Shown: positions 38,901-39,381 of the stretch, piece by piece
Numbering within the stretch: the stretch's first letter is position 1
Layout of the letters: each line of letters starts with the position of its first letter
DNA from: Escherichia coli 042
GTDB taxonomy: Bacteria > Pseudomonadota > Gammaproteobacteria > Enterobacterales > Enterobacteriaceae
Assembly (NCBI RefSeq): GCF_000027125.1
Contig: NC_017626.1
Length of the DNA stretch: 64,000 bases
Strand: one strand, 5' to 3'
Position numbers and translations under genes: made by a program
Notes under the pieces: generated by a model
What the model was told of the DNA's origin: nothing
The model's input: the letters and a program-made list of their open reading frames with translations, nothing else
The model's database searches: none

Positions 38901-39381
38901 ATGTTCACGATTAAAACAGATGATCTCACCCATCCAGCAGTGCAAGCATTAGTGGCTTACCATATTTCCGGCATGCTGCAGCAGTCTCCCCCCGAAAGCA
39001 GTCATGCTTTAGATGTGCAAAAATTACGTAACCCGACAGTGACATTCTGGTCAGTATGGGAAGGCGAACAACTCGCAGGAATTGGTGCGCTGAAGTTGCT
39101 GGATGATAAACATGGCGAACTGAAATCAATGCGTACCGCGCCAAATTATTTACGTCGAGGTGTCGCCAGTCTGATTTTACGCCACATTTTGCAGGTCGCC
39201 CATGACAGATGCCTTCATCGCCTGAGCTTAGAAACGGGTACACAGGCTGGATTTACGGCCTGCCATCAACTTTATTTGAAGCATGGTTTTCGTTGATTGC
39301 GAACCGTTTGCTGATTATCAACTTGATCCACACAGTCGATTTTTGTCATTGACGCTATGCGAAAATAATGAATTGCCATGA
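38901..39381 (+). pseudogene. yedL: GNAT-family N-acetyltransferase YedL, apparently interrupted by a 1-nt frameshift near 39290
   Basis: ORF-track frame stops after ...QLYLKHGFR (131 aa, 38901..39296); the +1 frame continues DCEPFADYQLDPHSRFLSLTLCENNELP to a stop at about 39381, together giving the 159-aa length I recall for intact YedL. Confidence 0.6.

Follow-up and report, generated by a model that had tools for sequence, protein, structure and literature searches.

The yedL gene in the window, by which we mean the whole 64,000-nucleotide stretch of Escherichia coli 042 DNA analyzed here, raises the question of whether its open reading frame encodes a short acetyltransferase in its own right or is what remains of a longer gene. 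The first-pass annotation had proposed that a single-base insertion splits yedL, either through genuine pseudogenization or through a sequencing or assembly error. We compared the locus with intact and truncated alleles from other genomes, and we regard it as highly probable that the yedL of the window is a genuine, inherited pseudogene that is fixed in its lineage.

Reading frames of yedL and the added T

The truncated frame consists of 130 native codons and one aberrant Arg codon followed by a premature TGA, and its 131-residue product ends in ...QLYLKHGFR. The first-pass reading that this frame closes after ...KHGFR and that the +1 frame carries the rest of YedL to a stop near 39381 is borne out by the reading frames collected in Table 1. 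Across both parts, yedL spans 481 nt versus 480 nt at the intact loci of K-12 W3110 and ETEC4079, which encode 159 residues, the length given for intact YedL in the first-pass annotation. The Pfam profile PF00583 matches residues 37-130 of the 131-residue ORF with 52.4 bits, against a cut-off of 20.7, so that by the Acetyltransf_1 profile even the truncated ORF belongs to the GNAT superfamily; the 32-residue piece read in the +1 frame gives no Pfam match by itself. The persistence of a GNAT match in the truncated product is a point that we count against the pseudogene reading. NCBIfam profiles returned sub-threshold matches only (ArsN2, RimI and similar), from which no specific family name can be assigned. 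Scans of 38700..39700 returned no terminator and a single promoter-like site, which lies downstream of yedL and is fewer than expected from shuffled sequence.

Table 1. Features of the yedL locus, in window coordinates
Feature	Position	Strand	Remarks
yedK (SRAP peptidase), intact upstream neighbor	38122..38790	+	inside the core haplotype common to all carriers
604-bp segment with all of yedL	38850..39453		absent from yedL-less NCTC9113 (blastn of L004 vs window)
Truncated yedL ORF	38901..39296	+	ATG 38901 to TGA 39294..39296; 131 codons
+1-frame ORF	39283..39381	+	reads MVFVDCEPFADYQLDPHSRFLSLTLCENNELP; stop 39379..39381
T4 run with one-base insertion	39287..39290	+	intact alleles T3; alignment column 387 gapped in K-12 W3110 and ETEC4079
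Orphaned yedL 3' part, +1 frame	39291..39381	+	residues 131-159 (VDCEPFADYQLDPHSRFLSLTLCENNELP) and native stop 39379..39381
Premature stop TGA	39294..39296	+	made by the frameshift
espR3/yedN-like leucine-rich-repeat type III effector pseudogene	39510..40633	-	tblastn with O157:H7 EspR3
Segment with the espR3-like gene	39521..40728		also absent from NCTC9113
Integrase gene fragment	~40817-40975	+	placed by correspondence with the 118UI annotation (L001 5017-5175)

The lesion was placed by a four-way alignment of the window, 118UI, K-12 W3110 and ETEC4079, in which the single length difference is one extra T. The window and 118UI read CATGGTTTTCGTTGA, whereas the intact alleles read CATGGTTTCG(T/C)TGA. 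The intact reading GGT TTC GTT GAT TGC (G F V D C) thus becomes GGT TTT CGT TGA (G F R stop) in the window; in the intact alleles, GGT TTC is followed by a GTT or GCT codon and then by GAT. The same run has three T's in three close intact alleles (L012-L014) and four in six independent carriers (L005-L010), and removal of one T from the window sequence restores a 159-residue YedL. Alignment to intact alleles therefore confirms the single-base insertion, and the run in which it lies overlaps the range of 39288..39293 proposed at first. K-12, ETEC4079 and L012-L014 all have intact, single-frame orthologues, and one indel explains the break, as expected of a frameshifted pseudogene. Because the lesion is one particular base by which the gene differs from many intact orthologues, chance plays no part in its recognition.

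We propose that one T was added to a TTT run to give TTTT, most plausibly by replication slippage. The frame would then shift past Phe130, Val131 would be read as Arg, and translation would end at the premature TGA.

The closest known allele is that of 118UI (NZ_CP032515.1, Eco118UI_RS11270), which has the same T4 run, is 100% identical to the window over both the 680-bp and the 2500-bp queries, and is labeled by RefSeq PGAP as "GNAT family N-acetyltransferase; frameshifted". Its neighbors are those of the window (yedK, a DUF5503 pseudogene, an integrase fragment and fliE), and the locus is without difference. The K-12 (WP_000494172.1, 159 residues) and ETEC4079 (WP_063086310.1) proteins are encoded by the same gene at the same yedK-fliE position, but, unlike the window, both alleles have T3 and a single 480-nt frame. 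Apart from the missing T, a single base separates the ETEC4079 gene from that of the window, and K-12 yedL has Ala131 (GCT) where the window haplotype would have Val131 (GTT).

A frame broken in the DNA may still be read through by the ribosome. The sequence GGU UUU CGU UGA permits tRNA-Phe to re-pair from UUU to UUC, and a +1 shift at UUU-C would give the native ...GFVDCEP... and hence a full-length YedL with the junction-spanning peptide ...HGFVDCEPFADYQLDPHSR. Programmed +1 sites of the prfB type combine a slippery codon, directly followed by an in-frame stop or a rare codon, with an upstream Shine-Dalgarno-like stimulator, and are conserved among orthologues. The site UUU CGU UGA departs from this pattern, since CGU, one of the common codons for Arg in E. 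coli, separates the slippery codon from the stop, and the 15 nt upstream (TATTTGAAGCATGG) contain no Shine-Dalgarno-like element; moreover, the orthologues in other lineages and genera are all single-frame. We consider recoding to full-length YedL extremely improbable, and any +1 slippage here would at best be background leakage.

The C-terminal tail lost from the GNAT fold

Had intact YedL proteins also ended at ...HGFR, there would be no truncation to explain. This is not the case: YedL and its homologues in other genera have 151-160 residues. Homologues of the repaired protein in this size range come from Escherichia fergusonii, Enterobacter, Yokenella, Buttiauxella, Serratia, Burkholderiaceae, Nocardia, Amphibacillus and others. 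The shorter entries among the matches listed are mostly E. coli records, many of them marked partial, or unnamed fragments, at identities of 95-100%; among these matches, none of the named homologues from other genera is as short as 131 residues. In an alignment of 30 homologues, the part of the protein that is lost from the window product contains six invariant residues (C133, P135, F136, Y139, D142 and S145) and four that are nearly invariant (P143, F147, M148 and L152).

An AlphaFold2 model of the repaired 159-residue protein (mean pLDDT 88.5, pTM 0.83) has its elements in GNAT order (E2-6, H12-28, H39-42, E47-54, E57-68, E71-79, H88-102, E107-113, H116-127, strand 131-132 and E145-151), and a Foldseek search with this model returned 1yx0 (E = 1.4e-15) and many other GNATs. 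The PDB entry 1yx0 is the solved structure of the GNAT YsnE of B. subtilis, which aligns over residues 4-155 of repaired YedL, tail included (E = 5e-50). In the structural alignment the two proteins are 55% identical, and both have the C-terminal motif CEPFADY..DP.S. YsnE is full length, whereas the window product ends ahead of this motif. In the model, the truncation falls just after helix α4, and the conserved loop and the last two strands (131-132 and 145-151) are gone. The 131-residue product accordingly has none of the C-terminal strands that follow helix α4 in a complete GNAT fold, and the motif C-x-P-F-x-x-Y-x-x-D-P-x-S, by which YedL and YsnE can be matched end to end, occurs only in the +1 frame past the stop. 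By sequence and predicted fold, the gene is assigned to the GNAT superfamily, YedL/YsnE subfamily, and its encoded product falls short of a complete GNAT domain.

The C-terminal strands of GNAT enzymes complete the sheet beside β5 and line the acceptor site. Judging from its conservation and its place in the model, it is probable that activity requires the lost tail, and because of this role of the strands the 131-residue product is most likely misfolded, unstable or inactive. Reduced from 159 to 131 residues, it would keep the N-terminal and central GNAT fold through helix α4, and the loss of the C-terminal loop and the last two β-strands would leave it misfolded or without activity.

A different way to read the same product is as a functional short variant of YedL, a view that finds some support in the GNAT domain score that the truncated ORF retains and in the abundance of the allele in a successful lineage. 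The tail removed, however, has six invariant and four nearly invariant positions and two core strands, and among the matches listed no homologue outside E. coli is that short. A related proposal is that the T run serves as a phase-variable on/off switch, and this proposal depends on how the run varies among genomes.

Distribution and haplotype of the T4 allele

The segment 38801..39480 was compared by megablast with 5426 complete E. coli genomes, in which the usual place of yedL is between yedK and fliE. An exact 80-mer centered on the T4 run is present in 137 of the 1307 complete genomes with yedL. The other 1170 have at least one difference from it, and all of the non-identical rows among the matches listed have the 79-base span of T3. 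In a collection of 15 billion proteins (NCBI, JGI, ENA, Logan and UniRef), the exact 131-residue protein was counted in 10355 index blocks and on no fewer than 1000 contigs, as against 324 blocks for the closest intact protein. The lesion is thus inherited rather than private to one assembly.

Alignment of 12.4 kb around yedL from the window, the six carriers and the three close intact alleles places the lesion on a shared haplotype. The core at 37401..39900 is identical to the window in 6/6 of the full-length carrier loci sampled, while the carrier flanks differ from the window block-wise, with 72-146 SNPs per 12.4 kb. In L006 the blocks lie upstream, those of the L005 group lie downstream, and L007 has them at other positions. 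Within the core, the three intact alleles depart from the window sequence, chiefly in yedK. When the 2.5-kb core was used as the query, 140 genomes matched at ≥99%, compared with 137 that have T4, and the best 60 of these 140 are all 100% identical to the window over the core. We also searched for an ancestral, intact version of the carrier haplotype with a repaired T3 core query of 2499 bp. No T3 version of the carrier haplotype was found in the 5426 genomes; even the repaired query is matched best by a T4 genome (2500-base span), the T4 carriers are outranked by no other genome, and the nearest T3 genome is ∼99.0% identical. Because the repaired query still ranks T4 genomes first, the extra T is tied to one haplotype, and because no T3 version of that haplotype was found, there is no sister allele by which to date the event. 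Among the carrier records, one is named "O15:H18 strain ST69", and a link to ST69 rests on that single record name.

The flanks fliD..yedE (32901-37400) and fliF..fliI (41400-45296) show blocks of dense SNPs relative to genomes that share the core, and the block-wise pattern indicates that the surroundings of the flagellar region are a mosaic produced by recombination. For 27000-51000, the best genome match is 99.3% identical over 24 kb, and no genome in the collection is identical to the whole window.

Homopolymers are sites where some sequencing platforms make indel errors, and the position of the lesion in such a run lends a measure of plausibility to the idea that the extra T is a miscall and that the real yedL is intact. 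The run is, however, just 3 to 4 bases long, and independent projects have yielded the identical allele in 137 complete genomes and on 1000 contigs or more. T4 is, moreover, strictly linked to one 2.5-kb haplotype, unlike random errors, and at least 60 of the carrier genomes are 100% identical to the window over 37401..39900. An assembly artefact is for these reasons very unlikely, and between the two sources considered at the outset, the presence of the allele in 137 genomes on one core haplotype strongly favors genuine pseudogenization.

The linkage of T4 to one haplotype fits one mutational event with later recombination in the flanks, but neither random sequencing error nor recurrent slippage. 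In our proposal, the mutation would have arisen once on one yedK-yedL haplotype and would now be fixed in a widespread lineage. The 3' part of yedL is without further decay, which fits a recent event and gives no positive sign of relaxed selection.

The same data bear on the proposed switch. Long tracts whose length differs between close relatives are typical of contingency loci. The tract here has 3 to 4 T's, no length other than T3 and T4 occurs in the loci examined, and T4 is found on one haplotype with no switching within it and no revertant in the 5426 genomes. Both a functional short variant of 131 residues and a phase-variable switch in the T run are exceedingly improbable. We also give a very small chance to the view that truncated yedL is not inert, with low-level UUU-C slippage regenerating YedL, or with the 131-residue fragment, in which the acetyl-CoA-binding core is kept, having residual or altered activity, in a way that is tolerated or favored in a globally successful ExPEC lineage. 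The inherited pseudogene remains our preferred reading, and its setting on the chromosome is considered below.

An accessory islet between yedK and fliE

Among the 5426 complete E. coli genomes, yedL is present in 1307 and absent from ∼76%; it is accessory and dispensable. In NCTC9113, fliE comes immediately after yedK, and the comparison with this strain delimits two absent segments (Table 1), between which 67 bp are kept. The second of these contains an espR3-like gene that is 73% identical to O157:H7 EspR3 over residues 1-289 and then changes frame near 39776. PGAP annotates this gene as DUF5503, "frameshifted; internal stop" in 118UI and likewise "frameshifted; internal stop" in K-12. A fragment of an integrase gene sits between the effector pseudogene and fliE and suggests that the yedL-espR3 segment is what is left of a mobile islet. 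Because yedL is accessory, the neighboring espR3-like gene is broken and an integrase fragment lies nearby, we conclude that yedL belongs to a small islet which was acquired horizontally and is decaying in the carrier lineage. The T4 allele may persist because yedL is dispensable and lies on this decaying effector islet, in which case the truncation would be neutral.

Other arrangements were seen at this position and elsewhere. In O157:H7 NE92, the module is duplicated in tandem (L015 4003-7717): yedL and espR3 are both intact, and beyond them lie a second yedL, which is partial (5'-truncated), and espR4. Where the window has yedL, other E. coli have a TnpB/InsQ gene, or a helix-turn-helix gene after a truncated yedK, and the yedK-fliE gap is a structural hot spot. 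A plasmid of strain SCU-111 (NZ_CP051728.1 143175-143602) has a GNAT gene with ∼82% DNA identity to yedL; the family thus also moves on plasmids.

Our literature search on yedL returned incidental mentions only (lysine-acetyltransferase strain lists, Nac regulation and a YhaJ motif difference), with neither a functional study nor a report of the pseudogene. K-12 yedL is listed as regulated by Nac, with induction under long nitrogen starvation (PMC7417836, PMC10100675), and a lysine-acetyltransferase study included it with other GNAT genes in its lists of overexpression strains and plasmids (PMC6199490).

The allele itself is already known, as RefSeq annotates the same yedL as a frameshifted pseudogene, and the case is an ordinary one. 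The correct label for the gene in the window is a frameshifted pseudogene rather than a 131-residue acetyltransferase. As a natural knockout, it says only that yedL is dispensable in the carrier lineage. Its practical value is confined to annotation and to the possible use of the T4 allele, which is on one yedK-yedL haplotype, as a simple lineage marker. For the biology of E. coli, the locus is one more case of accessory-islet decay, in which yedL is accompanied by an espR3-like effector gene that is broken too and by the remnant of an integrase.
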